Positions 2 through 17,527 of a stretch of 64,000 bases of DNA are shown in pieces (within the stretch, counting starts at the first letter, position 1; each line of letters begins with the position of its first letter). Location of the stretch: the IMG/VR virus record IMGVR_UViG_3300028840_007457; one strand, written 5' to 3'. The translations under genes were made by a program, and so were the position numbers. Origin of the DNA: an uncultured virus (IMG/VR IMGVR_UViG_3300028840_007457) (taxonomy: Duplodnaviria; Heunggongvirae; Uroviricota; Caudoviricetes). The notes under the pieces are model-generated. The model was not told the origin of the DNA, did no database searches, and saw only the letters and a program-made list of their open reading frames with translations.

Positions 2-1120
2 GCTTTTGATATTCAAAAAATTAAAGATGGTGCTAGAAGGGGTAAGCTGTTTGGAGTAATTAGTTGTAATAAATATGGTCGAAAAGATATTACTAAAATA
101 GGAAAACAGATTAGACGTCCTGTTGACGATTTAAAGAAAGGTATGACTTTATTTTGGATGCACGATGATGATGCTGGAGATGCTAAAGAGAAAGATAGTT
201 TTTCTAAAGGGGATCCTTTTAAAATTAAGTGGATTAAAAAGAAGGGTCTTTATTTGTTAGAATATGAGGGGAATAAAATTTATGGGGAGCCAACTCCTTA
301 TGAAGAGATTGTCCCAATTCCAGATCCAGAGGAAATTGAGGAAACTTTAACCCGTGTCGGCTGTTACGACTTGCTTGAGGAGGCATTAGGTAAAATGGCA
401 AAGAAGTCCAAAAAGAAGCCTACCAAGACGTCTAAGCGTAAGGGACGTGCTGAGTATGACGAGGATGACGACGACGAAGATCTGGATAGCGAATATGAAG
501 ACGATGAAGATGAGGAAGAGTACGAGGAGGATGAAGACGAGGAAGAGTACGATGACGACGATGATGACGACGACGATGATGACGACGATGATGATTTAGA
601 TGACGACGATGAAGATGAAGACGATGATGATTTAGATGACGACGATGAAGATGAAGACGATGAAGATGAAGACGATGATGATGATGATGAAGACGATGAC
701 GACGACGACGATGATGACGACGACGATGATGATGAAGACGATGACGACGACGACGATGATGATTTAGATGACGACGATGATGACGACGATGACGACGACG
801 ATGATGACGACGATGATGACGACGATGATGACGACGATGATGACGACGATGATGACGATGATGACGACGATGATGACGACGATGATGACGACGATGATGA
901 CGACGATGATGACGACGACGATGACGACGATGATGATGATGATGATGACGATGATGACGATGATGATGACGACGACGATGATGACGAAGAACCAGCGCCT
1001 AAGAAACGTAGGTATAGTAAGAAGCGCAAAGATGCCAAAAAGAAAAAGGCAGCTCCGAAAAAGCGTGGACGTCCAAAGGGCAGCAAAAATAAGAAAACTA
1101 AAAAGAAGCGCAAGAAATAG
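2..1120 (+). CDS. 5'-truncated protein: globular N-domain, long Asp/Glu tract, C-terminal Lys-rich AT-hook (possible SSB or nucleoid/chaperone protein)
   Basis: The frame of the 143..1120 ORF is open back to position 2 (AFDIQKIKDGARRG...), so the gene starts before the window. About 180 aa of D/E, then AAPKKRGRPKGSKNKK. Confidence 0.75.
   Translation, partial: AFDIQKIKDGARRGKLFGVISCNKYGRKDITKIGKQIRRPVDDLKKGMTLFWMHDDDAGDAKEKDSFSKGDPFKIKWIKKKGLYLLEYEGNKIYGEPTPYEEIVPIPDPEEIEETLTRVGCYDLLEEALGKMAKKSKKKPTKTSKRKGRAEYDEDDDDEDLDSEYEDDEDEEEYEEDEDEEEYDDDDDDDDDDDDDDDLDDDDEDEDDDDLDDDDEDEDDEDEDDDDDDEDDDDDDDDDDDDDDEDDDDDDDDDLDDDDDDDDDDDDDDDDDDDDDDDDDDDDDDDDDDDDDDDDDDDDDDDDDDDDDDDDDDDDDDDDDDDDDDDDDEEPAPKKRRYSKKRKDAKKKKAAPKKRGRPKGSKNKKTKKKRKK
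455..991 (+). repeat. GAY/GAR trinucleotide low-complexity tract encoding poly-Asp/Glu
   Basis: About 73 uninterrupted GAT/GAC codons at 767-985, partly with 12-bp period GATGATGACGAC. Confidence 0.95.
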
Positions 1121-1226
1121 TCCAACTTGCTATGGTTATTATCGTGAAAAACCACGGTGCAAAAAGTGTATCTGGTTAGCTCCTTGTGTGGATTTAAACA
1201 CGATACTGCTTTCAATCAAACGATAA
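1032..1226 (+). CDS. small Cys4 zinc-binding protein overlapping the end of the acidic ORF (+1 frame)
   Basis: MPKRKRQ...PTCYGYYREKPRCKKCIWLAPC; the Cys motif lies in otherwise unassigned sequence 1121-1226. Confidence 0.45.
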   Translation: MPKRKRQLRKSVDVQRAAKIRKLKRSARNSPTCYGYYREKPRCKKCIWLAPCVDLNTILLSIKR

Positions 1227-1259
1227 TAATTTGTAGATAAAAGAACCAGATTACTGGCG

Positions 1260-1625
1260 ATGGTACGCAGTTGGAAATATACAGGAACCTGGAATGATGC
1301 TAAGACTTTACATCAGCGTTCTTGTTTAGAAGTACCGTGGTATATTCCAAGTGCTTTATCATCGCTAGGTGAATCTTTTATTCTTTATTTATTTAGTGAT
1401 AATCCTATTAGTAAACATTTTACTACTGTTATTGATAATTTTTTAGTTAGAGAAAACCATCAAAATAATCTAATTGTAGCAGTAAATGTAAAGTCAGAAG
1501 AGATACTAAATTACTTTTCTGTTTCGATACTACCACAATTAAGAATTTTTTATGTTGGGAAAGAAATATCACGGCATCACGGTACTAAAAGTTATGACGA
1601 ACTTTATAAGTTATTAGTTTCGTAA
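1260..1625 (+). CDS. thioredoxin-fold-like protein lacking CxxC
   Basis: C-terminal pattern VAVNV..EEILNYFSVSILPQLRIFYVGKEISRHHG resembles the thioredoxin C-terminal half. Confidence 0.5.
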   Translation: MVRSWKYTGTWNDAKTLHQRSCLEVPWYIPSALSSLGESFILYLFSDNPISKHFTTVIDNFLVRENHQNNLIVAVNVKSEEILNYFSVSILPQLRIFYVGKEISRHHGTKSYDELYKLLVS

Positions 1626-1648
1626 CAAAATGAAAAGGTACAAAATTC

Positions 1649-2965
1649 ATGGGAGCCAAGAAACCCGTCTTTGCATTTCATCCAGCAATTGCAGCCATTA
1701 ATGCTTTTAAAGCTGTTAAAGGTTTGGATTGTGCTCCTCTTAAAGAGGCTAGACGAGTACACAATACTGTATCTTCTGGTAGCCTTTCTATAGATTTAAT
1801 TTTAGGGGGTGGATTTCCTTCAGGAAAATTTGTAACTATTTTCGGGCCAGAAGGTTGTGGGAAGAGTACACTATTGCAGGAATTAATTGTTAGTTGTCAA
1901 ATGAATTTTATTACTGTAGTTCATTATGATTTTGAAAGTGGATCTGATCCGGTTTACATGAGTAATCAAGGTATCGATCTAGATCACAGCATTGTTTTGC
2001 CAAAGATTAATAAAAATGGGACACCAGCTAAAACAGGTAATAAGATTGAGTACCCGAATTATTTTTATTGTCAGCCTGATTTTGGTGAACAAATGTACAG
2101 ACATATTCTCGTTACTTTAAAAGCCCTCCCAGAGGTAGAAAATAAACCACCTCAAATTGTATTTTTGGTAGATAGTTTTGCTGCTATGAGTTCTGAAGAA
2201 GTAGACGACGAAACTGGTGAGGGTCGTATTGCTCCGCAAGCTAGAATGCATAGCAATTTCCTTCAAATGATTCGCCCACGTCTTAAGAGGAAAGGCGCTC
2301 TTTTACTAGGTTCTAATCAAATGAGAACTGCAATTGGTCAATGGGGCAATCCACAAAAAGAATATGGTGGAGCTGCCCTTATGTATTATCCTGACCAAAA
2401 AATAATGCTTACCAGACGGAAACTGGTTAAAGATAAAACCAAAGTTGATGTTCTTCCGATTACAGCTAGAACAACAAAAAATAAAGTATTTATGCCTCAC
2501 CGGATTTTAGAGGGATTAGGAATTATTCTTGCACGTGGTTTAGATAGATCTCTAGATGCTGAAGTCTTCCTTAAAAAGACTGGTCATCTTAAAGTAACTG
2601 GTAATGGATTGCGTCAAATTGTTTTCCCCAAAAAAGAAACTAAGAAGCTCAGTTGGATGAAATTCCGACAACATGTTGAAAATCCGAAATTTAGAGCTTT
2701 TTTATTCAGGCGTTTGAAAAAAGATAGGGTATTTGAAGAATATATGCAACATGACGGACCTCAAAATTATTTCTATGATCAAGATTTTGAAGAATATGAA
2801 GAAGAAGAAATAGATCAGGAAGAGGTTCAACGTCGCGTAGAAGAAGAAGGATCTGAATACAGAGACTTACGTAGACGCAGACGTAAGCAAGGTAAAAAAG
2901 GGAAAAAACGTTCTAAAAAACAAACTAGAAATGATGAAGAACTAGAAGAAGAAATGGCGAGCTAA
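1649..2965 (+). CDS. recA: RecA/UvsX-like recombinase
   Basis: SSGSLSIDLILGGGFPSG, Walker A GPEGCGKST, Walker B FLVDS, QARM, NQMR, GGAAL, KNKV motifs; extra acidic/basic C-tail. Confidence 0.92.
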   Translation: MGAKKPVFAFHPAIAAINAFKAVKGLDCAPLKEARRVHNTVSSGSLSIDLILGGGFPSGKFVTIFGPEGCGKSTLLQELIVSCQMNFITVVHYDFESGSDPVYMSNQGIDLDHSIVLPKINKNGTPAKTGNKIEYPNYFYCQPDFGEQMYRHILVTLKALPEVENKPPQIVFLVDSFAAMSSEEVDDETGEGRIAPQARMHSNFLQMIRPRLKRKGALLLGSNQMRTAIGQWGNPQKEYGGAALMYYPDQKIMLTRRKLVKDKTKVDVLPITARTTKNKVFMPHRILEGLGIILARGLDRSLDAEVFLKKTGHLKVTGNGLRQIVFPKKETKKLSWMKFRQHVENPKFRAFLFRRLKKDRVFEEYMQHDGPQNYFYDQDFEEYEEEEIDQEEVQRRVEEEGSEYRDLRRRRRKQGKKGKKRSKKQTRNDEELEEEMAS

Positions 2966-3468
2966 TGAAAATTAAACGTTGTAATATGTTTCTCGAAAAA
3001 GCGGATGCCATTGTTATTACTACCAACGGAGATGTTAAAAAAGATGGTGGTGCAGTAATGGGGAGAGGAGTCGCACTTCAAGCGGCTCGTTCTTGGTATG
3101 GTCTACAAAAGTTACTAGGCACTAAATTAAGTAAAAAAGGAAACAGAGTTAGGGTTCTAACTAAAAACGATGCTGCGGTTCCTTATCTTTCTTTACCTAG
3201 GAGAACAGATCCTCTTTTGGTGGCTGTTCCGTGGCATATTGTATCCTTTCCTGTTAAGTATCACTGGAAAGATAAAGCGGATTTAGAGCTTATAGAAACA
3301 AGTTGTAAACAGTTAAATAAACTGATATTGAAAAGAAATTGGAGGAGAGTGTTATTACCAAAACCCGGGTGTGGGAATGGTGGTTTAAATTGGAAAAAAG
3401 AAGTGAGAAAAATTGTTAAATCGTACTTCGGAAAATCAAATAAGGTTGTGATTGTAACTGAACCGTAG
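2965..3468 (+). CDS. macrodomain (ADP-ribose binding/hydrolase, DarG/TARG1-like)
   Basis: DAIVITTNG, VMGRGVA, FPVKYHW, LPKPGCGNGGLNW motifs. Confidence 0.85.
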   Translation: MKIKRCNMFLEKADAIVITTNGDVKKDGGAVMGRGVALQAARSWYGLQKLLGTKLSKKGNRVRVLTKNDAAVPYLSLPRRTDPLLVAVPWHIVSFPVKYHWKDKADLELIETSCKQLNKLILKRNWRRVLLPKPGCGNGGLNWKKEVRKIVKSYFGKSNKVVIVTEP

Positions 3469-3497
3469 CAACCTTTGGCAACGAAAGGAAACATCAA

Positions 3498-3827
3498 ATG
3501 CCAAAAAAGAAGAGAACAAAGAAAACAGATGCAGCTCCTAAGAAGCGCGGGCGTCCTAAGGGAAGTACAAACAAGAAAGCTGGAACTCCTGCTGGTGATG
3601 CACCTACAGCAAAGCAGGTAAAAGCTCGCATTAAGAAAGCGAAAGCAGACGTGGGTGTTAAAATTGTGACTACTTCTAAGGTTAAGGAAGTGCTGAAAGC
3701 TACCGGTCTTCGTGCTGAGAAAGATATTGAGGCATGGCTGGCCAATGAGCTTTATGCTATGATCAAAAAAGCGTGTCTTCGCACCCTTCGTAATGGTCGT
3801 AAGACTGTGCGCGGCTGGGACCTTTAA
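3498..3827 (+). CDS. bacterial-type histone-fold protein (Bd0055/HMf-like) with Lys-rich N-terminal AT-hook tail
   Basis: C-terminal ~57 aa IVTTSKVKEVLK...CLRTLRNGRKTVRGWDL carries the histone RKTV-x-x-x-D signature. N-tail contains KKRGRPKGS. SD AAAGGA upstream. Confidence 0.85.
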   Translation: MPKKKRTKKTDAAPKKRGRPKGSTNKKAGTPAGDAPTAKQVKARIKKAKADVGVKIVTTSKVKEVLKATGLRAEKDIEAWLANELYAMIKKACLRTLRNGRKTVRGWDL

Positions 3828-3875
3828 TTAGGTCTTTTTCCACCCTCCTTCTAAATCTTAAACAGGTTAAGTTCA

Positions 3876-4937
3876 GTGACTCGTTTCCTCCATACGGCGG
3901 ATATTCACCTGAATGCCCTTAGAGAATTTGATGGATTTTTAAGGAGGGTGGAGAAGACACTTCAGAGTATAACTGATATTGCTGTTATACATGAAGCTGA
4001 TTTAATTGTAGTAGCTGGAGATATTTATCATAGTAAAAGTATTACTCACCTTGAACGGCAACTATTGAGCGATTGGCTTGGTTCATGCCCCCTTCCTATT
4101 ATTGCTATAAGCGGAAATCATGAAGATAGATCTGAAGATTTGGGGGATACGTCCCTTAGCTATCTTTCTAAAATAAAACATAAAAAACATTTTGTTTATG
4201 ATAATTACCCTTCTTTCTTTAAGAAAAAGGGTTGTTATTTTATTCTGTTCCCTTTTGCAGACTGGACTAATAACGAATTTAGGTTACTGCTTGAAGCTAT
4301 CTTAGAAAATATTCCAGAAGATGATTTACCTATTGTGGTTGTACTTCATGAATATCTAAGAGGGGCAAAAACAGATACAGGTTTTGTAAAAGAAAAAGGG
4401 GGACAAATTGTACTTGTGGAAAATTTGTTTCCAAGAGTTACCTACTGGGCTTTGGGAGATGTTCACAAGTGCCAAAAGATAATCTCCAATGCCTGGTATA
4501 GTGGTTCACCTCATCAAACTCGCTTTGATGAAAAATTACCCAAAGGTGTTCTTTTAGTAGATACAGATAATCCTACCGAACCTGAAATTATTCCAATTAC
4601 TAGCTCACCGCTTATACATTGTTCAAAATTACCAGAAGAAATTCCGTCAGATGCTTTTATAGATTTTGAACCCGAAACTCTCGCAGATGCTGCTGTTGGA
4701 GAATTGCCTCCAAATGTTAAATATCATCCAAATGCTAAGTTGTTTAAACGTCAAAGAACAAGCAATCTAGAAAATATAGAGTTTGGATTATTTGCTCAAC
4801 TTGACGACTACTTAGATGAAGCTGGATTAAGCCACAAGATGAAAGGTCGCAGCTGGCGGTATTTGAGGAAAATTGGAAAAAGTTTAGGTGTTAAAGTTCC
4901 TATTCCTAAACAATACAAGCGAAAGAAAAAAGTCTAA
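3876..4937 (+). CDS. sbcD: SbcD/Mre11-like metallophosphoesterase nuclease
   Basis: HTADIH, VAGDIYH, SGNHE, ALGDVH, YSGSP motifs. Confidence 0.9.
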   Translation: MTRFLHTADIHLNALREFDGFLRRVEKTLQSITDIAVIHEADLIVVAGDIYHSKSITHLERQLLSDWLGSCPLPIIAISGNHEDRSEDLGDTSLSYLSKIKHKKHFVYDNYPSFFKKKGCYFILFPFADWTNNEFRLLLEAILENIPEDDLPIVVVLHEYLRGAKTDTGFVKEKGGQIVLVENLFPRVTYWALGDVHKCQKIISNAWYSGSPHQTRFDEKLPKGVLLVDTDNPTEPEIIPITSSPLIHCSKLPEEIPSDAFIDFEPETLADAAVGELPPNVKYHPNAKLFKRQRTSNLENIEFGLFAQLDDYLDEAGLSHKMKGRSWRYLRKIGKSLGVKVPIPKQYKRKKKV

Positions 4938-5857
4938 TGGAAGAATCTTTGATTATACATCACCGGGGTTGTAGTGATGGGATTTGTGGAGCCCTTGTTC
5001 TCTATTTAGGCTTGGGTGAAAAAGCAGAAGTCATGTCTGCTCAATATGGAGAAGATCCTCCTCCAGATGAAGTTATTACAGATAGAGACATATGGATTGT
5101 CGATTTTAGTTATTCACGAGATACGTTAGTGCACATGAACGAAATTGCCTCCAATCTTATTGTTTTAGATCATCACGAAACTGCTAAAAACAATTGTGAA
5201 GGTTTAGATTTTGCCACTTTTGATATGAACAGAAGTGGAGCACAACTCGCATTTGATTTAGTAAAAGGTTTGCCTACAGCTGCTAGCAAAGAGTTTAAAG
5301 AAATCAAATCTATTCTTGAACAATTAGTTGGTTACGTTCAGGATAGAGATTTGTGGCAATGGAAATTATTGGGAAGCAGAGAAGTAAACGCATGGTTAGC
5401 TAGTTGGCCTAGAGACATTGAAACCTGGATTCAAATTCTAAATTTTCTTAAAACATCTTCTGACGCTGAACCCACACTGCCAAATGCTGTTTCTGGTTAT
5501 GGAGCAGCTATTTTAAGGTCACAAGATCAACAGAAAAAATCTTTACTAGCTGGAGCGTGGCCTGGAGTTGCAGCTTCTGTTCCTGGTTTTTCTGTTGTTA
5601 AAGTTATGATTGCCAATAGTCCTATTCTGCAAAGTGAAGTTGGAGAAGAGTTGGCCTTAGTAAAAGGTTGTGATATGGGAGTGTGTTGGTTTCAGAAAAA
5701 TGACGGTGAGTACGTTTATAGTTTGAGAGCTAGTGATAATGGTTTTGACGTCTCTTCTTTTGCCCAGCATTTTGGAGGTGGTGGACACAAAGCTGCTTCT
5801 GGATTCACTAGTGATAAAAGCCCAGAGGAAATATTTGCCAGAGTTTTTGCCGACTAG
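4937..5857 (+). CDS. DHH/DHHA1 family phosphoesterase
   Basis: CSDG, VDFSY, LDHH, DRDLWQW, SLR, GGGGHKAASGF motifs. Confidence 0.9.
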   Translation: MEESLIIHHRGCSDGICGALVLYLGLGEKAEVMSAQYGEDPPPDEVITDRDIWIVDFSYSRDTLVHMNEIASNLIVLDHHETAKNNCEGLDFATFDMNRSGAQLAFDLVKGLPTAASKEFKEIKSILEQLVGYVQDRDLWQWKLLGSREVNAWLASWPRDIETWIQILNFLKTSSDAEPTLPNAVSGYGAAILRSQDQQKKSLLAGAWPGVAASVPGFSVVKVMIANSPILQSEVGEELALVKGCDMGVCWFQKNDGEYVYSLRASDNGFDVSSFAQHFGGGGHKAASGFTSDKSPEEIFARVFAD

Positions 5858-5864
5858 TTTTTAA

Positions 5865-7499
5865 ATGTCTTTACAATGTCATTACCACATTTATCAGGGG
5901 GACTGTTTAGAGCGATTAAAATCCATTCCTTTTGGAAATTGTGTAGACTTAATTGTTACAGATCCACCTTATGGATTGAACTTTATGGCATCTAAACCTT
6001 TTTGGGATAAGGCTGTACCACCTGTTGAAGTTTGGAAAGAATGTTTTAGAGTCCTTAAACCTGGTGGCTTCGCTTTTGTACAATGCATTCCTCGTCAAGA
6101 CTGTCTCAGCAAAATGATTTTAAATTTACAAGAGGCTGGATTTGAAACCAATTTCACCAGTCTTTACTGGACATTTGCTACAGGAATGAATAAAGGTACT
6201 AATCTTAGTAAAGAAGCTGATAAGAAAGCCGATAAAAAACGTAAAAAATCTGGATTAAGCTCTAGTAATCCGAATTCTAAAAAAGGTGGTTATAAAGGAA
6301 AACGGTACAAAGAAAAAAGAGAAACAAAATTTGGAGTTGTTCAAGATCAACCAGACGATACAATTCCAACTACTCCAGAAGCAAAAAAACTGGATGGATC
6401 TTTTGGAGGATTCCAACCCAAACCCGCCACAGAAGTCATCTTATGCGTAATGAAACCAATCGAAAAAGTGACAAGAGAACAACTCTATCAGAGCATTGGT
6501 TGGGATTATTGGTACACTAGCGTAAGGAAACTGAAAACTAAAAAACAAATTGCAGCTTTGCAGAAAAAATACGGGTCCAAAAAATATATCAAAATTGGTA
6601 AAACAGTTAAACGACGTTTGGCTCTTAATCCTGATTTAAAAGATGAAGTGTGGTGCGGTAAGAAAAAACTGGAAAGTAAACCATACAAAAATACCACCTT
6701 TAAGACATTTCTTACTCAAGCTTTGGTAAATGGTAAAGGTTGTACTTGGTTGGGAGATTGTAGAATTCCTACTAAAGATTTTGTAACAGTGCTTAATATA
6801 GGTGTACCAGGGAATAATTTCAACGATGATTCTTATGTATGGTCCGGTGTAGATTATTATATGTCGTCTGAGGGTCGTTTCCCTGCTAATATTCTTGTAA
6901 GTGATGACAGTTTAAATGATGGTTTTAAACGAACTAGTGGTAAAATGAAAGCCAATACTAAGCGTAGAAATAGAAAAGGATATAGTGGTAAAATGCCCAA
7001 GAAAACCAATGCTGAAACTATTGGAGATTCTGGTTCATTTTCTCGTTATTTTGATTTAGATGCTTGGTTTTTAAAATTTGTAAATGACTTACCTAGTAAA
7101 GCTCAAAAGACTTTTCCTTTTCTTATTGTTCCTAAACCTAGTAAAAAAGAAAAGAATGTTGGTTTAGAAGATTTACCGGAAAAAATAAGCGATCCTATTG
7201 CTAGGCATAGAGGTAGAAGGATGAAAAAACCATCTCGTATTGATGGTAAACCACCTTCTAAAATGGCAAATCACCATCCAACGGTAAAACCCGTTACACT
7301 TATGAGTTATTTAATTACTCTCGGGTCACGTCCTGGAGATATTGTTTTAGATCCGTATTGTGGTAGCGGAACTACAGGTATAGCAGCTCGCCTTCTTAAT
7401 CGTACTTTTATTGGTATGGAGTTAAATAAAGAGTATGCTCGAATTGCAAAACGTCGTATTGGAAAACCGACTAAACTGTTTGTAAAGAAGAAGTCATGA
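5865..7499 (+). CDS. DNA N6-adenine/N4-cytosine methyltransferase (beta class), orphan
   Basis: GDCLE, TDPPY near the N-terminus; HPTVKP and DPYCGSGTTG near the C-terminus. Confidence 0.92.
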   Translation: MSLQCHYHIYQGDCLERLKSIPFGNCVDLIVTDPPYGLNFMASKPFWDKAVPPVEVWKECFRVLKPGGFAFVQCIPRQDCLSKMILNLQEAGFETNFTSLYWTFATGMNKGTNLSKEADKKADKKRKKSGLSSSNPNSKKGGYKGKRYKEKRETKFGVVQDQPDDTIPTTPEAKKLDGSFGGFQPKPATEVILCVMKPIEKVTREQLYQSIGWDYWYTSVRKLKTKKQIAALQKKYGSKKYIKIGKTVKRRLALNPDLKDEVWCGKKKLESKPYKNTTFKTFLTQALVNGKGCTWLGDCRIPTKDFVTVLNIGVPGNNFNDDSYVWSGVDYYMSSEGRFPANILVSDDSLNDGFKRTSGKMKANTKRRNRKGYSGKMPKKTNAETIGDSGSFSRYFDLDAWFLKFVNDLPSKAQKTFPFLIVPKPSKKEKNVGLEDLPEKISDPIARHRGRRMKKPSRIDGKPPSKMANHHPTVKPVTLMSYLITLGSRPGDIVLDPYCGSGTTGIAARLLNRTFIGMELNKEYARIAKRRIGKPTKLFVKKKS

Positions 7500-8662
7500 C
7501 AACCGAAAACGCCCCAAAAAATATATCTCTTGCTATCAAATACCGTCCTCGTTCTCTTAAAACGGTAATTGGACAAGACTTAGCTGTTCAAAAAATTAGA
7601 GGAATGGTAGAAGCAAAAACTATTCCACCTACTATTCTTTTAGCCGGTCCTTACAGCTCTGGTAAAACTACCCTCGCTAGGTTAATTGCTCTCTATGCCA
7701 ATTGTGAAAAACTCACTCCTCAGGGTGAACCTTGCCGAAAATGTGATAGTTGTAAGGCTATGCGCTCTGTTATAATGGGGACAGGTACCCATCCAGATGT
7801 TAAAGAAATAGATGCAGCTGATAAACGAAAAATAGAAGATATGCGGAATCTTCAGGAGCAAGCCGAATATGCTCCTATTACTCGTTACAAAATTTTTATT
7901 CTGGACGAGTGTCACCAAATTACTGGTCCTGCTTGGCAAGCAGCTCTTAAAACATTTGAACATCCTCCTGGGGATAGTCGATTTATTCTTTGTACCACTG
8001 AACCAGAAAAGTTGCCTAATACTATCCGTAGTAGAGCTACTAAATTTATACTACGTCCTATTTCTCCGGCTCTTACATCTAAATTACTTCTCCGAATAGG
8101 CAAAAAAGAGGGATTGAACTTAACAAAAAAGACTAGACAAGAAATAGCTGGTGTGGTTAACGGTCATCCAAGAGATGCCTTGATTCTGTTAGAGAGTGTG
8201 GTAAATTATGTTAGGACAGCAGGCAAGTCAGTTGATATTAAAAAACATCTTCCAACCATACTTCGCGAGAGTGCTGCGGCTAAGCCTTACTTGGCTTCTC
8301 AAGATTATGTCAGTGCTCTTTTCTCTCTCGATTTAGCATTGGCTTTTCAAGCTGTAAATAGTGTAGAAAACCATACATCTTTTATTGATCAAATAGTTTT
8401 AATTTTGCATTTGTTACTTACTAGTTGGGTGGATAAAAAACTTACTGATAGATCTAAATTTTGGGCGGTCAAAAATGTACAACATGTAGGACGTGAGGTA
8501 GCTCTTAAACATATTCAAGATATTAATACTATGCTCAAGCTCCTACTTTCTGCTCAAGCATCTATTAAAAGCTATACAATCAATGCTCATGCAGTTTTGG
8601 AAAGTGTGGCTATCGAAGCAATTTCTATTGGAAAATCAACCTGGGGGAAGAAAAGGAAGTAA
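7496..8662 (+). CDS. dnaX: DNA polymerase III gamma/tau-like clamp loader subunit
   Basis: KYRP, GPYSSGKTT, Zn module C..PCRKCDSC, EIDAAD, ILDECH, TIRSR. Confidence 0.9.
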   Translation: MTTENAPKNISLAIKYRPRSLKTVIGQDLAVQKIRGMVEAKTIPPTILLAGPYSSGKTTLARLIALYANCEKLTPQGEPCRKCDSCKAMRSVIMGTGTHPDVKEIDAADKRKIEDMRNLQEQAEYAPITRYKIFILDECHQITGPAWQAALKTFEHPPGDSRFILCTTEPEKLPNTIRSRATKFILRPISPALTSKLLLRIGKKEGLNLTKKTRQEIAGVVNGHPRDALILLESVVNYVRTAGKSVDIKKHLPTILRESAAAKPYLASQDYVSALFSLDLALAFQAVNSVENHTSFIDQIVLILHLLLTSWVDKKLTDRSKFWAVKNVQHVGREVALKHIQDINTMLKLLLSAQASIKSYTINAHAVLESVAIEAISIGKSTWGKKRK

Positions 8663-8667
8663 GACCT

Positions 8668-8907: not shown

Positions 8908-8908
8908 A

Positions 8909-9115
8909 ATGCCTAAAAAAAATTATGAAGGTATTGTTGGACGAAATGTAAGAGATGTTGGAAAACAATTTGAAGAAGACCCCTCTAAAATACTTGTATC
9001 TGTACAACTGGAAGATGAGCAAATTGAACATTTAAATTCTGGATTGCGAAAAAGAAGTAGGCGTCTTATTCCAATAACTACGTTAGCAGCTTTTATCAAA
9101 AAGCTCAACTCCTAA
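8909..9115 (+). CDS. hypothetical protein
   Basis: ATG 1 nt after the previous stop; fills the gap before sbcC. Confidence 0.5.
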   Translation: MPKKNYEGIVGRNVRDVGKQFEEDPSKILVSVQLEDEQIEHLNSGLRKRSRRLIPITTLAAFIKKLNS

Positions 9116-9132
9116 CTCTTTCCTACCACACC

Positions 9133-11589
9133 ATGCCTACCATTGAATTGTTAGATTTCAGGCTGAGAAATGCCTCTATTTATTTGTCAGCTGAAATTCC
9201 TTTGGCTAATCAGGGTTTAGTTATACATAGAGGTTTAAATTTAGATGATGGGGGATTTTTAGGATCTGGAAAAAGCACAGTTCCTGATAGCTTAGCTCGT
9301 TTACTTGTAGGAAAAAGCGGAAAGAAAGATACAGCTGACGATATTATTAATTTCTCAGCTAAGAAAAATTTGGAGAAAAGTCTTCGTTTAAAAATAGATG
9401 ACCGACCTATTCAAATTAATCAATTTAGAAAACATAATCTATATGGCAATAAAGTAGAAGTTTTAGATTTAGATACAGGAAAAGATATCTTACCCAGAGA
9501 GCATAGAAAACATCCTCATACTTGGATTAGAGACCAGCTTCTTCAGATTGATGAGACTAGCTTCTTCAATTTAGTTTATCTAACCCAAGATTTGAATCAC
9601 GTGCTCTTGCACGGTAAAGACGGAGAACGTCGTAAAAAACTAACCGTAATGTTTAGTTTAAATGTCTACGATGATTTTTATAGTCAATTAAATACACAAA
9701 TTAGTTTGGTAGAAACTGAAATTTCTCAACTTGATAGATTAAAAGCTCAAATTGAAGAAATAGAAAGTCAGTTAGAAAAAGCAGGCAAGCTTAAAACCCT
9801 AAAAAATAAGTACGTAAAAGCAGCTCAAAAAGCAGATGCTATGCAGGCAGGTTTTATTGCAACTCAAAACGAATTAGAGGAGCAGCAAGAATTACTAGCA
9901 TCTCTTAAGCTGCGTTTTACCAAAGAGGAAGAACTGCAAACTTTATGGTCTAAATACGACCATCTTCTGAAACCTAAATTTGAACAGAAAAAACAACTTA
10001 CTAAAGTTGCACTTAAATCTTTGCAAGAGTCTCTCAAAAATTTAGCTAAAAAGAAAATCACTCTTGAAAATCAAGAAGAAGATCTTAGAAGAAGATCTGT
10101 TATTGAAAGTCAGTTAAGTAAATTAGATGAGTCTTTAGAAGAAATTGAATCATTGGAATCTATAGAAGAAGACTTAACTAGCCTAAAAACAACTTTACAC
10201 CATTTAAAAGTTGTAGAGCTACCAAAAGCAGAGAAGAAACTAGAACTGCAAGAAGACCTTTCCCAAATCGAAAAACCACCAACGAATATTCATAAGCTTC
10301 AAGAAGAAAACGAAGCTCAAATTTCTGCAATAGCAGAATTAACCAGTACAATAAAATCTGTTAATCATAGATTGGAAAAAGGTGTTTGCCCAACATGCGG
10401 TCAAGCTAGAAATCTAACTAAAGAACAAGTTGATGAACTGCAAATTAAGTTGGCTTCTTCGAGAGATGCATTAAAAAAGAAAAAACGTAGAAATTTCAAA
10501 CTCAAGTCATCTCTCGAATCTTATGAACAATATCTTAGGTTGGCAGATCAACTAAAGACTATTGACTGTGATTCCACACTTCAAGAAATAAACACTAAAA
10601 TAACTAAACTTCAGAAAAAAGAACGTAAGTTGTCATCCATTCTTGAACTTGTAAAGCAAAAAGAACGTTTAGAGACATTGTTAGAAGCACTACCTGAAGG
10701 AAATTTGGAAGACATTAAAACAAAACTGCCTAAAATCAGGAATAATTATCGAGAGCTTAAAAAATTGGTAGAGGTAGTTATTAAAATACGACGTATTAAC
10801 TTGGAGCTTAAACCTCTTCCAAGAGGAAACAAAAATGAAGTATCGAAAACAGTTCAGCAATTAAAAACTGATGTAAGAACTTTGAGTAGCCGATACAAAA
10901 AATATAGCAGCAAAGCAGCCAAATTAGAAATAAAAATAAATCACATAAAAAGTCTATTGGAAAGGATTTCAGAACTAACTTCCAAATTAAAAGAAAGTTC
11001 TAAATTACAGAATAAACTAACGTGTTTCAAGGCTCTTAAAACTGCTTTTCATCCCCAAGGAATGAAACAAGCTAGATTTCAACATATTTTAAAAGAGGCC
11101 ACTGAAAAAACAATTCCTGCCTATTCTTCCATGTTATGGCCTCGTAAGAAAGTAAGCTTAGAATTCGGAGGAGAAAATAATCTTCAGTTCTATCTTTGTC
11201 GTAAAGGTAGAAAATCATCAGTTAAGAGTCAGTTATTGAGCGGTGGAGAGAAACATAAAGCTGGGTTAGCTTTCCTACTTGGAATGAGAGATTTAAAAGA
11301 GCTTTATACAGATAGCTCTTTTAATATTTTGATTATTGACGAACCTTTTGGTAATTTAGATCCTCCTGGAGAAGAAAGCCTACTCTCCATTTTAGAAATG
11401 CTTAAAGAAAGATTCTCTTCTATATTTGTAATAAGTCATAGACCTGAAGTGATTAACAGTTCAGTATGGGACCAGACTTGGTGGTCAATTCGAGAAAACA
11501 ATGTAAGTAAACTTTATACTTCAACAGCTCCTCCAAAGAAATACCGACGTTTAGCAGCAAAGATGTTATCAACAGAAGGTGCATTGTGA
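9133..11589 (+). CDS. sbcC: SbcC/Rad50-like SMC ATPase
   Basis: Walker A GSGKS, long coiled coil with central CPTCG zinc hook, LSGGE signature, IIDEP, ISH. Confidence 0.92.
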   Translation: MPTIELLDFRLRNASIYLSAEIPLANQGLVIHRGLNLDDGGFLGSGKSTVPDSLARLLVGKSGKKDTADDIINFSAKKNLEKSLRLKIDDRPIQINQFRKHNLYGNKVEVLDLDTGKDILPREHRKHPHTWIRDQLLQIDETSFFNLVYLTQDLNHVLLHGKDGERRKKLTVMFSLNVYDDFYSQLNTQISLVETEISQLDRLKAQIEEIESQLEKAGKLKTLKNKYVKAAQKADAMQAGFIATQNELEEQQELLASLKLRFTKEEELQTLWSKYDHLLKPKFEQKKQLTKVALKSLQESLKNLAKKKITLENQEEDLRRRSVIESQLSKLDESLEEIESLESIEEDLTSLKTTLHHLKVVELPKAEKKLELQEDLSQIEKPPTNIHKLQEENEAQISAIAELTSTIKSVNHRLEKGVCPTCGQARNLTKEQVDELQIKLASSRDALKKKKRRNFKLKSSLESYEQYLRLADQLKTIDCDSTLQEINTKITKLQKKERKLSSILELVKQKERLETLLEALPEGNLEDIKTKLPKIRNNYRELKKLVEVVIKIRRINLELKPLPRGNKNEVSKTVQQLKTDVRTLSSRYKKYSSKAAKLEIKINHIKSLLERISELTSKLKESSKLQNKLTCFKALKTAFHPQGMKQARFQHILKEATEKTIPAYSSMLWPRKKVSLEFGGENNLQFYLCRKGRKSSVKSQLLSGGEKHKAGLAFLLGMRDLKELYTDSSFNILIIDEPFGNLDPPGEESLLSILEMLKERFSSIFVISHRPEVINSSVWDQTWWSIRENNVSKLYTSTAPPKKYRRLAAKMLSTEGAL

Positions 11590-12088
11590 TATGTTGGTTC
11601 GAGTATTTACAGCTTTAGCTAATGGAGGATCTACCAGTTTACATTATTGGTTACAATATTTTCTTCCTGAAGAAACTGTAGGAAGAATTAATCTAATTAA
11701 AGACCACATTATACTGGAAACACACGAAGGCTCTGAAATTAAATTAACCAATGGAATTCTATATAAGAAATTGAAGAGAGGTAGACCAAAATTCACCATA
11801 CCTTTATTGGTTGAAATTTGTAGAATGTACGATCACTCTATTGGAGTGGATAAGCTTTTAACCGATTTTTTGAATCAATCTCTAAACACAAATTTTAAAC
11901 TGTTGCCCTTTTACATAAGTGCTGGTAAACTTGTTACTTTAGTATCAACTAAATCCTTATCAAAAACTGATAGTAAAGGTTGTAAAGTAGTAACGAAAAC
12001 ACAAAGAAAAGAAACCGTTTTGGAATTGAATTCCAGCAAACGGTTACAAACAGTACTGGTAGATCTAATCAGGAGACAAGCCCTGTGA
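11579..12088 (+). CDS. hypothetical protein
   Basis: 169-aa ORF coupled to its neighbours; contains KRGRPK. Start uncertain. Confidence 0.6.
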   Translation: MHCDMLVRVFTALANGGSTSLHYWLQYFLPEETVGRINLIKDHIILETHEGSEIKLTNGILYKKLKRGRPKFTIPLLVEICRMYDHSIGVDKLLTDFLNQSLNTNFKLLPFYISAGKLVTLVSTKSLSKTDSKGCKVVTKTQRKETVLELNSSKRLQTVLVDLIRRQAL

Positions 12089-12972
12089 CAAAAAAGAAAA
12101 AATCAAAAGTCAGAAAAGTCCACGCTGTTGGGCTTGCAACTATGAAGCCAACATTTGTGGTGGTATTTCACATTCATTCCCCTAATACTGGTGGTAAAGT
12201 ATTTGTTTACCCACCTGAGGGAGAAGAAGAAGAATTTAAACTTCCGAAGCAAACAGATGAGTCTAGAAACTATGTTATCCTAACAGCTCCTGAAAAATAT
12301 CACGAACTTTATCGTCATGCTAAGAGAATACATCGCCTTCTAATTTGTGGAAAAGGACAACCTGAACAGCTCCTTTCTTTAGGGGTTCCAATTATCGATG
12401 CAGAGATGAAGAATAATAAAGTTGTTCGCTCTTTGTCTTTTAAAACCGCAGATGAATTACGAAACATTATAGAGGAGGATGCTGTTTTAATTAAAATAAC
12501 ACCTCGGAAAAGTCATAAAAAGCAAACAACGATAAAGCCTAGGAAAAAACAGTCTAAAAATAAAAATGCAACTATACCGGAAAAAACCGAGGCTCCTGAA
12601 TTACTTCCAATTTTGAAAGAGATTAAAAGCAGCTTCTCTGGAGATAATATAGAGTACCAAGATGCTGTCCTTATTCCTATAATTCTAAGAATAATCAAAG
12701 ATATGGATCGTTCAGAATTTAAAGAACACTGCAAACTCTTAGAGGAAAATGTAGAAAATACCGAGCTATGTAAAAAGCTGTACACTTTTCTAGAAAAAAA
12801 ATGGGATGTAGGAGGAGGACGACGCCTGTCAAAGGCTGCTCGACTTTATCTAGATGCTAAAAAACCCAAAAAAATCAGTGCACTTTCTAAAAAGTATAAT
12901 CTAAGTTCAAAAGATTTGACGTGGGTTGTCAAAGCTGTCAGAAAATTAGAAGCTGCTGTGTCGGAGGGCTAA
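12085..12972 (+). CDS. hypothetical basic protein
   Basis: 295-aa ORF with a GTGA overlap with the upstream stop. Confidence 0.7.
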   Translation: MTKKKKSKVRKVHAVGLATMKPTFVVVFHIHSPNTGGKVFVYPPEGEEEEFKLPKQTDESRNYVILTAPEKYHELYRHAKRIHRLLICGKGQPEQLLSLGVPIIDAEMKNNKVVRSLSFKTADELRNIIEEDAVLIKITPRKSHKKQTTIKPRKKQSKNKNATIPEKTEAPELLPILKEIKSSFSGDNIEYQDAVLIPIILRIIKDMDRSEFKEHCKLLEENVENTELCKKLYTFLEKKWDVGGGRRLSKAARLYLDAKKPKKISALSKKYNLSSKDLTWVVKAVRKLEAAVSEG

Positions 12973-12994
12973 AATTTAGAGACTCACAAAGTAC

Positions 12995-13022
12995 TTGACT
13001 TTTTTGTAAACCTGAGTAGTAT
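12995..13022 (+). promoter_or_regulatory. putative sigma70-type promoter
   Basis: TTGACT, 16 nt, TAGTAT in the intergenic gap, followed by AAAGGAG and ATG at 13089. Confidence 0.45.
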
Positions 13023-13088
13023 AGCTGCTACACTTTACACGCCCTTGGGCATCACAGCAGGAACAGATTGTTCTTCAAAGGAGTCGTA

Positions 13089-14171
13089 ATGGCTAAGAAG
13101 AGAAAAAAGCACAGCACAAAGTCCAAAAGCCATCGGCATGAAGAGGACGAGTATGAGGATGTAGAGACCGAGGAGGAGGATGAGTCTGAGGACGAAGAAG
13201 AGGAAGATGAAGAGTATGAAGATTACGATGACGATGACTCAGATGATACTGTAGATGAGGACGACGACGATGATGACGATGATGACGACGACGATGATGA
13301 CGATGATGATGACTCCGATTCTGACGATGGTGATGATGATGACTCCGATGACTCCGATTCTGACGATGGTGATGATGATGACTCCGATGATGACGATGAA
13401 GATGAGCGTGAGAAGAAGCCTAAGAAAAAGAAGAAGCGCGGTCGCAAAAAGAAACTAGCTAAAGATAAAGACACTACACCCGTCTACAAAGTACAAAAAG
13501 GATTTACGGTAGACGACAAGGAGTATGAAGTAGGGGACGTTATTCCGATTACCTGTGGTACATGTACCATGTTTAACCGGGAAATAATGGGACAAGTCTT
13601 CTGCAAAGAGGGGGAACGTCTAGATCCCGACGATCCTAAAACCAAAGTCATTAAAAATAATTTCAGCTGTGGGCAATACTACGTCAACGTAGAAAATGCT
13701 AAGGCGTTTGAAGATTTTAATGACAAGCTTCCTTTCTCTGCTCGGGAAGCCGTGCGTAGGTTACTACCGTCTTACCGCAAACTGTTAGAAATGCGGACCA
13801 AGATTATAGATGATGCTGAGTCTGGAGAAGGTGTTAAGCTTTTTGCTGCTGCTTTCAGTTGGCTTCAGAAAAACTTTGTGCATGAGGATCAAATTCTCTA
13901 TATTACTCCTCTTATTCGTGCTCTTAATCGTAGGCAACGTCAACAGAAGTCTCAAAAAGCCCTTCCTCTTAAGGGCGGCATGACTGTGCAGTGGGATGAC
14001 GAGAAAACTGGAGAGCGTCTGGAAGGTATTATTTTTAAGACCTACCAAGGGCAAATTAGTATTGCCATTCTCGAAGGTAAATACAGAGGCAAACGTCGTA
14101 CATTCCGTCTAAAGAACTTCCGTCAAAACATGAATGTCGAAATCGTGGAGATGACGGCGGAAGACGACTAG
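13089..14171 (+). CDS. acidic D/E-tract protein with Cys cluster and C-terminal SH3/Tudor-like beta domain
   Basis: SD AAAGGAG before ATG 13089. Basic N-terminus, ~90 aa acidic tract, basic patch, CGTC..C..C, then GMTVQWDD...EGIIFK. Confidence 0.75.
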   Translation: MAKKRKKHSTKSKSHRHEEDEYEDVETEEEDESEDEEEEDEEYEDYDDDDSDDTVDEDDDDDDDDDDDDDDDDDDSDSDDGDDDDSDDSDSDDGDDDDSDDDDEDEREKKPKKKKKRGRKKKLAKDKDTTPVYKVQKGFTVDDKEYEVGDVIPITCGTCTMFNREIMGQVFCKEGERLDPDDPKTKVIKNNFSCGQYYVNVENAKAFEDFNDKLPFSAREAVRRLLPSYRKLLEMRTKIIDDAESGEGVKLFAAAFSWLQKNFVHEDQILYITPLIRALNRRQRQQKSQKALPLKGGMTVQWDDEKTGERLEGIIFKTYQGQISIAILEGKYRGKRRTFRLKNFRQNMNVEIVEMTAEDD

Positions 14172-14189
14172 ATTACTCCATTTTTAAAA

Positions 14190-14232
14190 GGGTGGGAAAT
14201 GGTAAGCGAACTTTGACTACCATTTCCCACCC
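14190..14232 (+). terminator. stem-loop (15-bp perfect inverted repeat)
   Basis: GGGTGGGAAATGGTA / TACCATTTCCCACCC in an intergenic gap; no U-tract follows. Confidence 0.6.
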
Positions 14233-14253
14233 ATAAGTTCATCAAAAACTTCG

Positions 14254-15876
14254 ATGAAAAAATCCACCAAAACACAAGTTGAGGAAGCCTTTAATTGTTT
14301 GGAAAGGCTGGAGGTGTACGAAAAGAACAAAGAGAAAAAAATCCTTTTGGAAGAAACAAAAACCAATCCAGTTTTAAAAACCATTTTTAAAATGGCTCTT
14401 GGGCAGGATCGGTACTTTGTTCATCCTATAATAAAAACCGCCCGTTGTACTTCCGAAATAACTCCACATGACTCTTGGCTTAAATTTGTTAAGCTGGCCA
14501 GTTACCTTAAAGAGCGTCGTTGGGGTTCTAAAAAAGCTACTGCTAAAACCAAAGCTCTACTTCTCAAAAGTGACCCTCTAGTAGCTAAATGGTTATTGAG
14601 AATTTTAGACCATGACCTTCGTGTAGGAGTAGGTCCGAAAACAATTAAATCCGTTTTTGGTTTAGGTTTTCTCACAGAAGGTAAGACTGGTACTAACAAT
14701 GCCTCTATGCAGTTTAGAGGGTGTATGTTGGGGTTGGCCTACAAAAGACTTCCCAAAAAATACAAACCATTAAAATTTCCAAAAGCTGGTGAGTATAAAT
14801 TAGACGGAGAAAGAGCCCTTCTTTTTATTTTTCAAAAAGTCAAAAAGGTAATTATAGTCAGTAGGGCTAACCGGCGAAAAAAGCATATTGAAAATGTCGA
14901 ACTCTTTACTAGACAGCTTTTTAGTTTGGCGAGAGACTTGGTAGGCCCTGAAGAAGATGTCTTCATTGATGGAGAATTCCTAGCAAAGTCGTGGAATAAA
15001 ACTTCTAGTATCGTGAGTAGTTATAAGAACTTCAATGAAGCAGAATTTCTAGATGATGTTCGAGCTGTAGTATGGGATTGGGCACCTCTTAAAGCCTACG
15101 AAGCTGGTATTTTTGAAATGCCTTGGGAAGAACGCAAACATCATCTCTTAGGCTGCTCGCAAGAAGGAGCGGCTCTCAATCCTTTAAAGATCACCCCCAA
15201 GGTGTACTATCGAAGCCCTAACATAGGTATTCTAGGCCACAAAATTCTTAGAATGGAGGAAGCTCTCCATAAATTCTACAATAGGGCTCTGGACCGTAGT
15301 TTTGAGGGAGCAATGATTAAGACTGTAGATGCCCCGCTTCGTTTGGATGACCACAGAGGCCCTGATGTGATTAAATTTAAGGCAGAGGAAGAGGCTACTG
15401 GAGTCATTGTGAGGTTGGAGCCTGGGAAGAAGGGGAAGAACGCAGCAGCAGATCCAGAGATTACGGATAAAATCTACAGGATAATGAAAAAGGTTGGAAA
15501 GGTAAAAAAGACAAAATACTACTTGCAAGTTCGACCTTCTTTTGATACAGTAGAAGAGCTGGAGTCGTTTATTCAGAGACTTAAGAAAGCGGCTAAAGAC
15601 TCATCTGCTCGGAGAGTTTATTGCACCCCCAAAGGCGTAGTAACCTTTAGACACAGTGCCCGATTACGTCGTTTTATTGTACGGTACGACGGTAAGGAAT
15701 TTGCAGTTGGAGGAGGTCTGGAACATAAAGGTGGATCTGATCAGCGTATGGAGCTGTGGAAGCAGAGGAAAGAGTTGGTAGGCATGAAAATAGATTTCCT
15801 CTTTCAAAAAGATCCCGATCCAGTAGCAGTTGCCAGATTTAATCAATTTGTCCGTATACGACGAGATTTGTCGTAA
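14254..15876 (+). CDS. ATP-dependent DNA ligase
   Basis: Motif I EYKLDGER, FIDGEF, EGAMIK, IKFK, C-terminal OB fold (VGGG, ARF..FVRIRRD). Confidence 0.9.
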   Translation: MKKSTKTQVEEAFNCLERLEVYEKNKEKKILLEETKTNPVLKTIFKMALGQDRYFVHPIIKTARCTSEITPHDSWLKFVKLASYLKERRWGSKKATAKTKALLLKSDPLVAKWLLRILDHDLRVGVGPKTIKSVFGLGFLTEGKTGTNNASMQFRGCMLGLAYKRLPKKYKPLKFPKAGEYKLDGERALLFIFQKVKKVIIVSRANRRKKHIENVELFTRQLFSLARDLVGPEEDVFIDGEFLAKSWNKTSSIVSSYKNFNEAEFLDDVRAVVWDWAPLKAYEAGIFEMPWEERKHHLLGCSQEGAALNPLKITPKVYYRSPNIGILGHKILRMEEALHKFYNRALDRSFEGAMIKTVDAPLRLDDHRGPDVIKFKAEEEATGVIVRLEPGKKGKNAAADPEITDKIYRIMKKVGKVKKTKYYLQVRPSFDTVEELESFIQRLKKAAKDSSARRVYCTPKGVVTFRHSARLRRFIVRYDGKEFAVGGGLEHKGGSDQRMELWKQRKELVGMKIDFLFQKDPDPVAVARFNQFVRIRRDLS

Positions 15877-15907
15877 TTCCCAAATGCCAAATCATAGGAG
15901 AAATCAA

Positions 15908-16351
15908 ATGGCAAAACCAGAAACCAAGCTTGTTAACATGTCCGCTTCACAGGTGTTCGGACTACTGACAAAGGGGTCCATTGTGAAGGCCCGCGCTGGC
16001 GTTCTTACCGTCGAGATGACGTCTCGTAAGAACACCACTACCTACATCGTTCCGATTAACGGTACGGTGGTAGAAGAGGTGGTAGAAGCTCCCGATGATG
16101 GAGAGGCACCCAAGAAGCGTCGTGGTCGTCCTCCCAAGAAGAAGGCTGCCGATGATGCTCCCAAGAAGCGTCGTGGTCGTCCTCCCAAGAAGAAGGCTGC
16201 CGATGATGCACCCAAGAAGCGTCGTGGTCGTCCTCCCAAGAAGAAGGCTGCAGCAAAGAAAACAGGTAAGCGTGGTCGCCCCAAGGGTAGTGGAAAGAAG
16301 GGTAAGAAGGCCAAGAAGAGCAAGAAGAATCTTCTAGATCTTAAGCTCTAA
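15908..16351 (+). CDS. HMGA/H1-like multi-AT-hook DNA-binding protein
   Basis: SD AGGAG before ATG 15908; small N-domain, then 3x KKRRGRPPKKK plus KRGRPKGS. Confidence 0.8.
   Translation: MAKPETKLVNMSASQVFGLLTKGSIVKARAGVLTVEMTSRKNTTTYIVPINGTVVEEVVEAPDDGEAPKKRRGRPPKKKAADDAPKKRRGRPPKKKAADDAPKKRRGRPPKKKAAAKKTGKRGRPKGSGKKGKKAKKSKKNLLDLKL
16106..16252 (+). repeat. 51-bp tandem repeat (~3 copies) encoding DDAPKKRRGRPPKKKAA
   Basis: Units start at 16151 and 16202, with a partial copy from 16106. Confidence 0.95.
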
Positions 16352-17398: not shown

Positions 17399-17527
17399 TT
17401 TGGTCTCCTTGGACTTTGATTTACAAAACCGCCTGTTTAAACAGTAACACCGGTACTTTATTTTATAGACTACTTTGTTAAACAAAGATAGAACAACCTC
17501 TTTTTCCGATGGGAGAACAAAATAAAA

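Follow-up and report, generated by a model that had tools for sequence, protein, structure and literature searches.

Among the closest described relatives of the histone considered here, HLp of Leptospira perolatii is a tetramer that wraps DNA (PMC12701072), and residues R48 and N52 of the face-to-face (FtF) histone logo, which are absent from bacterial-dimer histones, form the dimer-dimer contact (PMC11390915). Viral FtF histones (VFFH) of Caudoviricetes with lysine-rich N-tails of 5 to 40 residues are already in print (bioRxiv 10.1101/2024.12.06.627149), and histones of giant viruses are packaged in virions, a fate discussed for large phages as well (PMC12619734). In Myxococcus xanthus CarD, a Tudor-like domain and an acidic region occur together with AT-hooks, and in myxobacterial CarD the HMGA-like domain can give way to a Lys-rich one of H1-like type (PMC2919716). 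Tailed-phage histones have been described only recently. Here, we analyzed a 64,000-nucleotide stretch of DNA from an uncultured virus (IMG/VR record IMGVR_UViG_3300028840_007457), hereafter the window, whose first 16.3 kb (2..16,351) form a single run of + strand genes in the open reading frame (ORF) listing and encode a histone, a multi-AT-hook protein and two hyper-acidic proteins. The explanation that we favor, at slightly better than even chances as a whole, is that this block is a conserved replication, recombination and repair module of huge tailed phages in which four DNA-associated proteins of extreme charge are embedded.

Profile scans located a terminase (2.8e-94), a portal and a head protease downstream in the window, which therefore belongs to a tailed phage. 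The terminase is 26 to 29% identical to those of jumbo phages, e.g., PaBG and phiRSL1, records of this phage lineage measure 220 to 350 kb, and the histone protein occurs on a record of up to 298 kb. Alignment of eight homologs of the acidic protein at 13089 (the adaptor, below) retrieved 8 related IMG/VR loci, to which later scans added G006, a complete 349,793-bp genome with terminal repeats. BLASTP of the window proteins against the related loci revealed one gene order, namely poly-Asp family, thioredoxin-like, RecA, variable slot, histone, SbcD, clamp loader, SbcC, two unknowns, acidic adaptor, ligase, basic/AT-hook protein and two more conserved genes. The same order is found in L003, L007, L009 and L057, with core proteins 35 to 48% identical; the window and L009 are more closely related to each other than to the rest. 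All four genes of interest occupy fixed positions in each of the four records that span the block (the window, G002, G003 and G006; G005 and L004 duplicate G003), and the fragment G004/L009 carries three of them before it is cut ahead of the fourth. Judged from gene order, the four genes are thus stably inherited together, as members of a module of 14 genes. Because this entire replication/recombination module is syntenic in the relatives, their co-occurrence is not specific and does not reveal a four-gene functional unit. The features of the block are as follows.

2..1120, + strand: poly-Asp protein, C-terminal 372 aa, 5′-truncated by the window edge; consists of the end of a conserved globular domain, a Lys-rich patch, an acidic tract (458-991) and a basic tail with an AT-hook core (1064-1075); family of 15 homologs
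1260..1625, + strand: thioredoxin-like small protein (Pfam Thioredoxin E=0.0068, below the cut-off; homologs in L003, L007 and L057, position kept)
1649..2965, + strand: RecA/UvsX-type recombinase (Pfam RecA 1e-31; phrog_97, UvsX-like, 1.9e-45; relatives 44-48% identical)
2965..3468, + strand: macro-domain-like protein (Pfam Macro 2.1e-4, 21.6 bits against a cut-off of 22; phrog_335 5.1e-24)
3498..3827, + strand: FtF alpha3 histone, 109 aa, by profile match to solved histones
3498-3656, + strand: basic N-tail of the histone, aa 1-53, net +16, with an AT-hook core at 3546-3557
3657-3824, + strand: histone fold, aa 54-109
3876..4937, + strand: SbcD/Mre11-type nuclease subunit (Metallophos 3.6e-12; phrog_100 1.6e-23)
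4937..5857, + strand: DHH phosphoesterase (Pfam/PHROG profile scans)
5865..7499, + strand: N6/N4 DNA methyltransferase (Pfam/PHROG profile scans)
7496..8662, + strand: clamp-loader subunit, gamma/tau-like (DNA_pol3_delta2 6.7e-28; phrog_5846 1.5e-67)
9133..11589, + strand: SbcC/Rad50-type ATPase (phrog_77 4.4e-57)
11579..12088 and 12085..12972, + strand: two conserved proteins without known function
13089..14171, + strand: acidic-tail adaptor protein, with a basic start, an acidic tract (13140-13406), a Lys-rich patch and a modelled globular domain (13470-14168); 24 homologs
14254..15876, + strand: ATP-dependent DNA ligase (Pfam/PHROG profile scans)
15908..16351, + strand: multi-AT-hook protein with four RGRP hooks; positional orthologs in L003, L006, L007, L009 and L057

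All four proteins that a preliminary description of this DNA had singled out (the histone at 3498, a protein with four AT-hooks at 15908, a poly-Asp protein at 2..1120 and a second Asp/Glu-tract protein at 13089) are present on the + strand of the ORF listing. None of them matched a Pfam family at E<=0.01.

The histone assignment gained strength as relatives were added to the query. The protein alone matched HLp (9QT0) in the PDB with E=5.8e-4, and together with three close relatives with E=8.7e-5. Profile A7, to which orthologs from three related phage contigs had been added, reached E=7.3e-12 over chain residues 11-65 of 65. The same profile aligned the whole fold of HTkC from Thermococcus kodakarensis (9F2C; E=2.7e-5) and matched the Bdellovibrio dimer histone HBb (8CMP/8FVX) only at ∼0.02. 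R95, N99, R101, T103 and D108 are invariant in 7/7 histone sequences, and their spacing is exactly that of R48/N52/R54/T56/D61 in the FtF logo (logo from PMC11390915), whereas HBb carries other residues at the R95/N99 positions of the A7 alignment. The RxTxxxxD motif is present and alpha3 is truncated, the protein stopping at L109, one residue past the motif Asp. On sequence grounds, ORF 3498-3827, proposed earlier to encode a histone, is thus an FtF alpha3 histone. It shares with HLp (PDB 9QT0-2) and HTkC (9F2C) the fold, the motif and the tetramer residue spacing, and with HLp the end one residue past the Asp, but differs in its 53-residue basic N-tail with an AT-hook and in being phage-encoded within a recombination module. 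The RGRP core of this hook, at 3546, had escaped the preliminary description. Dimer and tetramer formation would be predicted from homology, the monomer model being poor (pLDDT 57.4). Searches with this model returned nothing useful in Foldseek (best E 3.8) and no histone near the top in VIA-align (best Z 4.9).

The window histone fits the VFFH class, which likewise comprises phage-encoded FtF-like histones with positively charged N-terminal tails, although the reported tails of 5 to 40 residues compare with 53 residues (net +16) here. The term AT-hook is absent from the main text of the VFFH preprint (10.1101/2024.12.06.627149), in which no link between the histones and AT-hook or acidic proteins is described; these contigs may be among those in its supplements. 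That preprint sought chromatin partners via Pfam domains, an approach that does not detect the acidic and AT-hook proteins of the window. In the lineage described here, the histone keeps one position, with the recombinase on one side and the SbcCD nuclease on the other, and three proteins invisible to ordinary domain searches, namely the AT-hook protein and the two hyper-acidic proteins, become candidate partners for it. The "phage histone" class of Schwab et al. 2024 was considered and rejected: as described there (PMC11390915), its members have an N-terminal fold, a C-terminal tetramerisation helix and no RxTxxxD motif. They share with the window protein an alpha3-type fold in tailed phages, but in the latter the domain order is opposite, with the fold C-terminal, the motif present and no C-terminal helix or extension.

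Histone orthologs occur in 5/5 related records and in G006, which has exactly one histone match; cultured phages gave none at E<=1. A distant phage histone (L064:9890-10168 in L064/G007; 92 aa, 35% identical to that of the window) begins MPRGRPRK, with an AT-hook core at its extreme N-terminus. None of the module's genes lies within 10 kb of it, its neighbours are unrelated, and its 70-kb record, with an estimated completeness of 40%, shows no member of either acidic family. This hints, weakly, at a histone able to move without the module and at more than one origin of AT-hook tails on phage histones. Pattern scans for the histone, RecA, the ligase and the closest adaptor homolog (P0007) in IMG/VR, JGI metagenomes and GTDB retrieved no true relatives; one match was discarded as an unrelated phage protein sharing an AT-hook. 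In a GTDB scan with a histone C-terminal pattern, 22/22 loci (L028-L049) were archaeal genome bins, mostly Iainarchaeota/Diapherotrites, with 37 to 48% identity. These loci do not point to an archaeal host, the single pattern used having excluded Leptospira-type sequences.

The protein encoded by ORF 15908-16351 consists of a ∼60-aa N-domain, the hooks and a C-terminal tip, NLLDLKL (C-terminus KKAKKSKKNLLDLKL). Its four RGRP cores start at 16121, 16172, 16223 and 16271, three of them within a 51-bp tandem repeat (2.9 copies, 97% match). Pfam AT_hook matched three stretches with E=0.28, as expected for a 13-residue model. The R-G-R-P DNA pattern occurs 8 times in the window versus 1.81 expected, a count reached by 0/100 shuffles. 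Seven of the eight occurrences fall in the first 16.3 kb, all in coding frames, and the eighth, at 59229, is in frame in ORF 57441-59459 within a context that is not lysine-rich. ORF 11579-12088 was rejected as a fifth hook protein, its RGRP at 11777 not being conserved in relatives. Positional orthologs share the layout of N-domain, basic disordered region and short C-terminal tip, with 4 hooks in the window and G006, 5 in L003 and L007, and 6 in L006. The L009 ortholog, 46% identical overall and with the ∼60-residue N-terminal stretch conserved, carries Lys/Ala-rich repeats in place of hooks, and the same replacement affects the L009 histone tail. This natural swap of AT-hooks for a Lys/Ala repeat, which parallels the exchange of HMGA-like for H1-like domains in CarD, is a lead in its own right.

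ORF 15908-16351 carries an RGRP hook array as HMGA and CarD do, with a hook count of three or more, so the description of a four-hook protein stands. The HMGA likeness fails at the C-terminus: the protein, with a net charge of +33, has no acidic tail and instead has a conserved N-domain and a tip motif. In CarD the acidic region and the Tudor-like domain accompany the hooks, whereas in the window they lie on a different protein. Pfam scans gave no sign of sequence homology with either HMGA or CarD. The hooks had also been linked to the AT-rich genome, the window having a GC content of 39%. They are not an adaptation to such a composition, because relatives with 52 to 54% GC bear 4 to 6 of them.

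Tips of the AT-hook protein among orthologs read ASLFDESF, ALFEDDF or NLLDLKL, and RecA ends in DLSFDESF in L003 and SVSFDESF in G006; in some relatives, the acidic-hydrophobic tips of both proteins are near-identical. Many adaptor N-termini carry GLDPDLF(D/E). These tips may resemble clamp-binding peptides. The likeness between AT-hook protein and RecA suggests a common docking partner, and the three proteins may share one docking site. Two observations speak against it: in the window, the tips of RecA (EELEEEMAS) and of the AT-hook protein (NLLDLKL) are unlike each other, and PF00712 and PF02916 found no clamp gene in G006. RecA/AT-hook protein pairs lie at L003:1271-2647/12615-13355, L057:3454-4731/14947-15570 and L007:1021-2322/12413-12994.

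ORF 2-1120 is open at its 5′ end, where it runs off the window. Of the 178 residues in its acidic tract (458-991), 146 are Asp and 24 are Glu, and the tract offers one of the longest near-pure Asp stretches for the study of polyanionic tails. GAT and GAC codons stand at 78:68 in the tract versus 176:50 in neighbouring genes, a mixture more suggestive of selection for Asp than of pure repeat slippage. The exact tract length is uncertain and assembly-dependent, because a second assembly of this phage, G001 (221,679 bp), stops within the run of Asp codons, as calculated from coordinates; the repeat breaks assemblies, and its true length may differ from that in the window. The junction from the Asp tract into the AT-hook tail is reproduced in G001. 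As had been noticed, the protein ends in an AT-hook: its C-terminal Lys/Arg tail carries AAPKKRGRPKGSKNKK, with the RGRP core at 1064, and a near-identical module, AAPKKRGRPKGSTNKK, opens the histone (general form AAPKKRGRPKGSxNKK).

Full-length members of the poly-Asp family (401 to 442 aa, e.g., L010:1060-2265 and L012:1138-2466) have a basic N-terminus, a ∼260-residue domain with near-invariant H58, C76 and C94-P-x-C97, and an acidic tail of net charge -29 to -46 with repeated (D/E)WG(D/E) motifs, which ends in D-P-x-x-W (DDPxxW type) in 6/7 delimited tails. In the window and in L003/L010, L007/L012 and L057, the family gene is found two positions upstream of RecA. Acidic tails are the rule in single-strand-binding proteins (T4 gp32, T7 gp2.5, E. 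coli SSB), and T4 gp32 has the same order of parts: a basic N-terminus, a core with His and three Cys including CPxC, and an acidic C-terminal tail. It is likewise encoded beside a UvsX-type recombinase. Alignment by hhalign with T4 gp32 was weak (E=0.023) but in the right register, placing C76, C94 and C97 on the cysteines of T4 CxnCPxC and aligning the following FG.K motif too. In the ESM Atlas, the cluster at rank 8 (score 0.91) has PF08804 in 18% of its members. Because of the order of parts (His/Cys3 domain, then acidic tail) and the position beside RecA/UvsX, we lean slightly, on weak support, toward the poly-Asp protein being a gp32-like single-strand-binding protein; complete relative G006 has no Pfam SSB or gp32 elsewhere. 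Several results count against this assignment. PF08804 matched none of the 15 family members at E<=10, no full-length relative, and nothing in records G001-G003, G005 and G006; hhalign with a six-sequence gp32 profile gave E=0.72; and, of six gp32 proteins, only the two from T4 and RB49 outscored every one of their 500 shuffled versions. Moreover, the window protein lacks the DDPxxW tip of its family, its tail (net -136) being far longer than that of gp32, nearly pure in Asp and terminated by a basic AT-hook end instead of an acidic-aromatic tip. Cultured phages yielded no match to the family domain at E<=0.1. If the assignment is right, the family is a probable single-strand-binding protein family that current profiles miss. 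Upstream of the family gene in a 260-kb relative, L012:2-1039 contains a sigma-70-like stretch (FATWWIRQKIF), recognised by eye only.

The second acidic protein, the adaptor, packs 72 Asp/Glu into an 89-residue tract. An AlphaFold2 (AF2) model of its globular domain (pLDDT 91.3) predicts four conserved Cys set in beta hairpins, four helices and, at the C-terminus, an SH3/Tudor-like barrel, in agreement with the zinc and SH3/Tudor-like domains proposed for it. The five-stranded barrel (model residues 165-228) matched the SMN Tudor domain (Z 6.9, rmsd 2.0, 54 aligned), CarD (Z 6.9), the UvrD C-terminal domain (Z 6.5) and the EDC3 LSm domain (Z 7.3). Matches across Tudor, LSm, KOW, CarD and UvrD C-terminal domains range within Z 6-7.6; the modelled barrel is an assignment at the level of fold and gives no function. 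Foldseek gave small barrels a probability of 1.0; small barrels were all that the domain model found in PDB and BFVD, and the zinc and helical parts matched nothing there. A full HMMER search with the globular domain retrieved 24 homologs among 1.84 billion representatives; a word-index search found nothing with this domain, nor did the ESM Atlas (best score 0.81). A script delimited the N-terminal region in 14 of the 24 homologs, the other 10 being fragments, multi-domain proteins or unmatched by the pattern, and this region is acidic in all 14 (net -15 to -54). By this composition, the acidic tail is a conserved feature of the family, some members of which carry a basic or AT-hook patch ahead of the domain. 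BLASTP between the globular parts of the two acidic proteins gave E=2.1-3.8, which does not show them to be paralogs. Complex prediction with two histone-fold copies and the adaptor globular domain scored 0.07 against a mark of 0.32 and counts neither way. A look-up of RNA sequencing runs for the block returned none.

Both acidic proteins had been likened to histone chaperones. Nucleoplasmin and NAP1 indeed set long Asp/Glu tracts beside basic patches as these proteins do, but their globular domains are unrelated to the His/Cys3 domain and to the zinc/helical/Tudor-like domain, with no family match. Pfam families of any kind numbered zero for ORF 2-1120, ORF 13068-14171 matched only BUD22 (E=0.053), and 21 members of the adaptor family produced only 2 single-member, chance-level matches. 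The chaperone assignment is therefore not upheld, and the poly-Asp protein points instead to a gp32-like protein.

Building on the family memberships, conservation, synteny, charge patterns and adaptor domain fold described above, we infer how the four proteins might act within the module. By analogy with HLp and HTkC, handshake dimers of the histone would come together as a torus-shaped tetramer that bends or wraps double-stranded DNA, and the basic tail with its single AT-hook would add minor-groove contacts. The multi-AT-hook protein would be a tether, its basic disordered region (hook array or Lys/Ala repeats) holding DNA while the N-domain and the acidic-hydrophobic tip dock to other module proteins. 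The poly-Asp protein would most likely be the phage's gp32-like single-strand-binding protein, whose normally DDPxxW-tipped tail would have expanded to ∼178 residues in the window's phage and gained a basic AT-hook end. The second acidic protein would be a conserved zinc/helical/Tudor-like adaptor with a probably DNA-mimicking or partner-recruiting acidic N-tail.

The preliminary description read the block as a phage chromatin or condensate system. Spelled out as one dedicated system, the histone and the AT-hook protein would coat phage DNA and the polyacidic proteins would serve as chaperones or as a coacervate polyanion organising a replication compartment. We regard this as unlikely, although parts of it hold: the histone is real, AT-hooks are enriched and acidic tracts are conserved in two families. 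The fixed positions of the four genes in all four spanning records speak for it, but synteny extends over the entire 14-gene module and makes that co-occurrence unspecific, and the distant phage histone of L064 resides among unrelated genes. The near-identical AAPKKRGRPKGSxNKK module at the end of the poly-Asp protein and the start of the histone, the block-polyampholyte layout of both acidic proteins (basic patch, acidic tract, basic patch) and the Tudor-like barrel that terminates the adaptor also speak for such a system; the acidic tails would equally suit single-strand-binding proteins, of which they are typical, and no chaperone family was detected. Charges co-vary as well: histone tails of +16 in the window and +20 in L009 pair with adaptor N-tails of -52 and -47, and tails of +1 and +7 in the other two phages with -27 and -31. 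Yet, the window and L009 being closest relatives of each other, about one independent contrast underlies this correlation. A self-contained, charge-balanced phage chromatin, made up of a wrap-capable FtF histone with an AT-hook tail, an HMGA/H1-like linker and two polyanionic partners, one a single-strand-binding-like protein with a 146-Asp tail and the other a Tudor-like protein with an acidic N-tail, appears to us still less likely. In it, the charge of the two partners would co-evolve with that of the histone tail, and the partners would chaperone the basic proteins or scaffold a membrane-less replication compartment surrounding the phage DNA. Histone deposition or condensate formation would be pure conjecture.

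Host take-over or counter-defence, with the histone and the AT-hook protein compacting or silencing the host nucleoid and the acidic tracts mimicking DNA to soak up host nucleoid proteins, restriction enzymes and histones, strikes us as just as improbable as the charge-balanced chromatin. The phage DNA mimics Ocr and Arn are acidic, and the polyanions of the window are long (net -136 and -52), but to our knowledge DNA mimics are folded proteins and not homopolymer tracts, and both tracts here are attached to conserved globular domains, one of which resembles a single-strand-binding core. Typical conflict genes (macro domain, methyltransferase, DHH) do occupy neighbouring slots that differ among relatives, yet the four genes themselves lie within the conserved replication/recombination core rather than in a variable early region. 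A location among replication and recombination genes, >20 kb upstream of terminase, portal and protease, also makes it very unlikely that these basic and acidic proteins enter the head together with the genome as internal proteins, condense the capsid DNA and are ejected along with it. This idea can appeal to the structural genes downstream in the same window and to the virion-packaged histones of giant viruses discussed for large phages (PMC12619734), whereas the tip motif that the relatives' RecA shares with the AT-hook protein points to the recombination machinery.

Within the replication, recombination and repair module that we favor, the neighbours named in the preliminary description (RecA, SbcCD, macrodomain, methyltransferase and ligase) were confirmed, with Pfam Macro just under its cut-off and phrog_335 at 5e-24. 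The DHH phosphoesterase (4937-5857) and the methyltransferase (5865-7499) had no homolog in L003, L007, L009 and L057, and comparison with these relatives identifies them as insertions specific to the window's phage. The macro-like gene in the slot between RecA and the histone has a homolog only in L009 among the relatives; L007 and L057 carry a different gene there, and the ORF in L007 matches methyltransferase PHROGs. By the same comparison, the DHH/methyltransferase and macro positions are variable slots within an otherwise fixed module. Past the AT-hook gene, the sole long minus-strand ORF of the block (16397-17485, - strand, 362 aa) is placed as an insertion ahead of the next conserved gene; it had no Pfam or PHROG match and no homolog in the relatives. 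Finally, ORF 45343-47211, between portal and protease, contains a run of 11 Glu/Asp at 46135 and may encode a scaffold-like protein.

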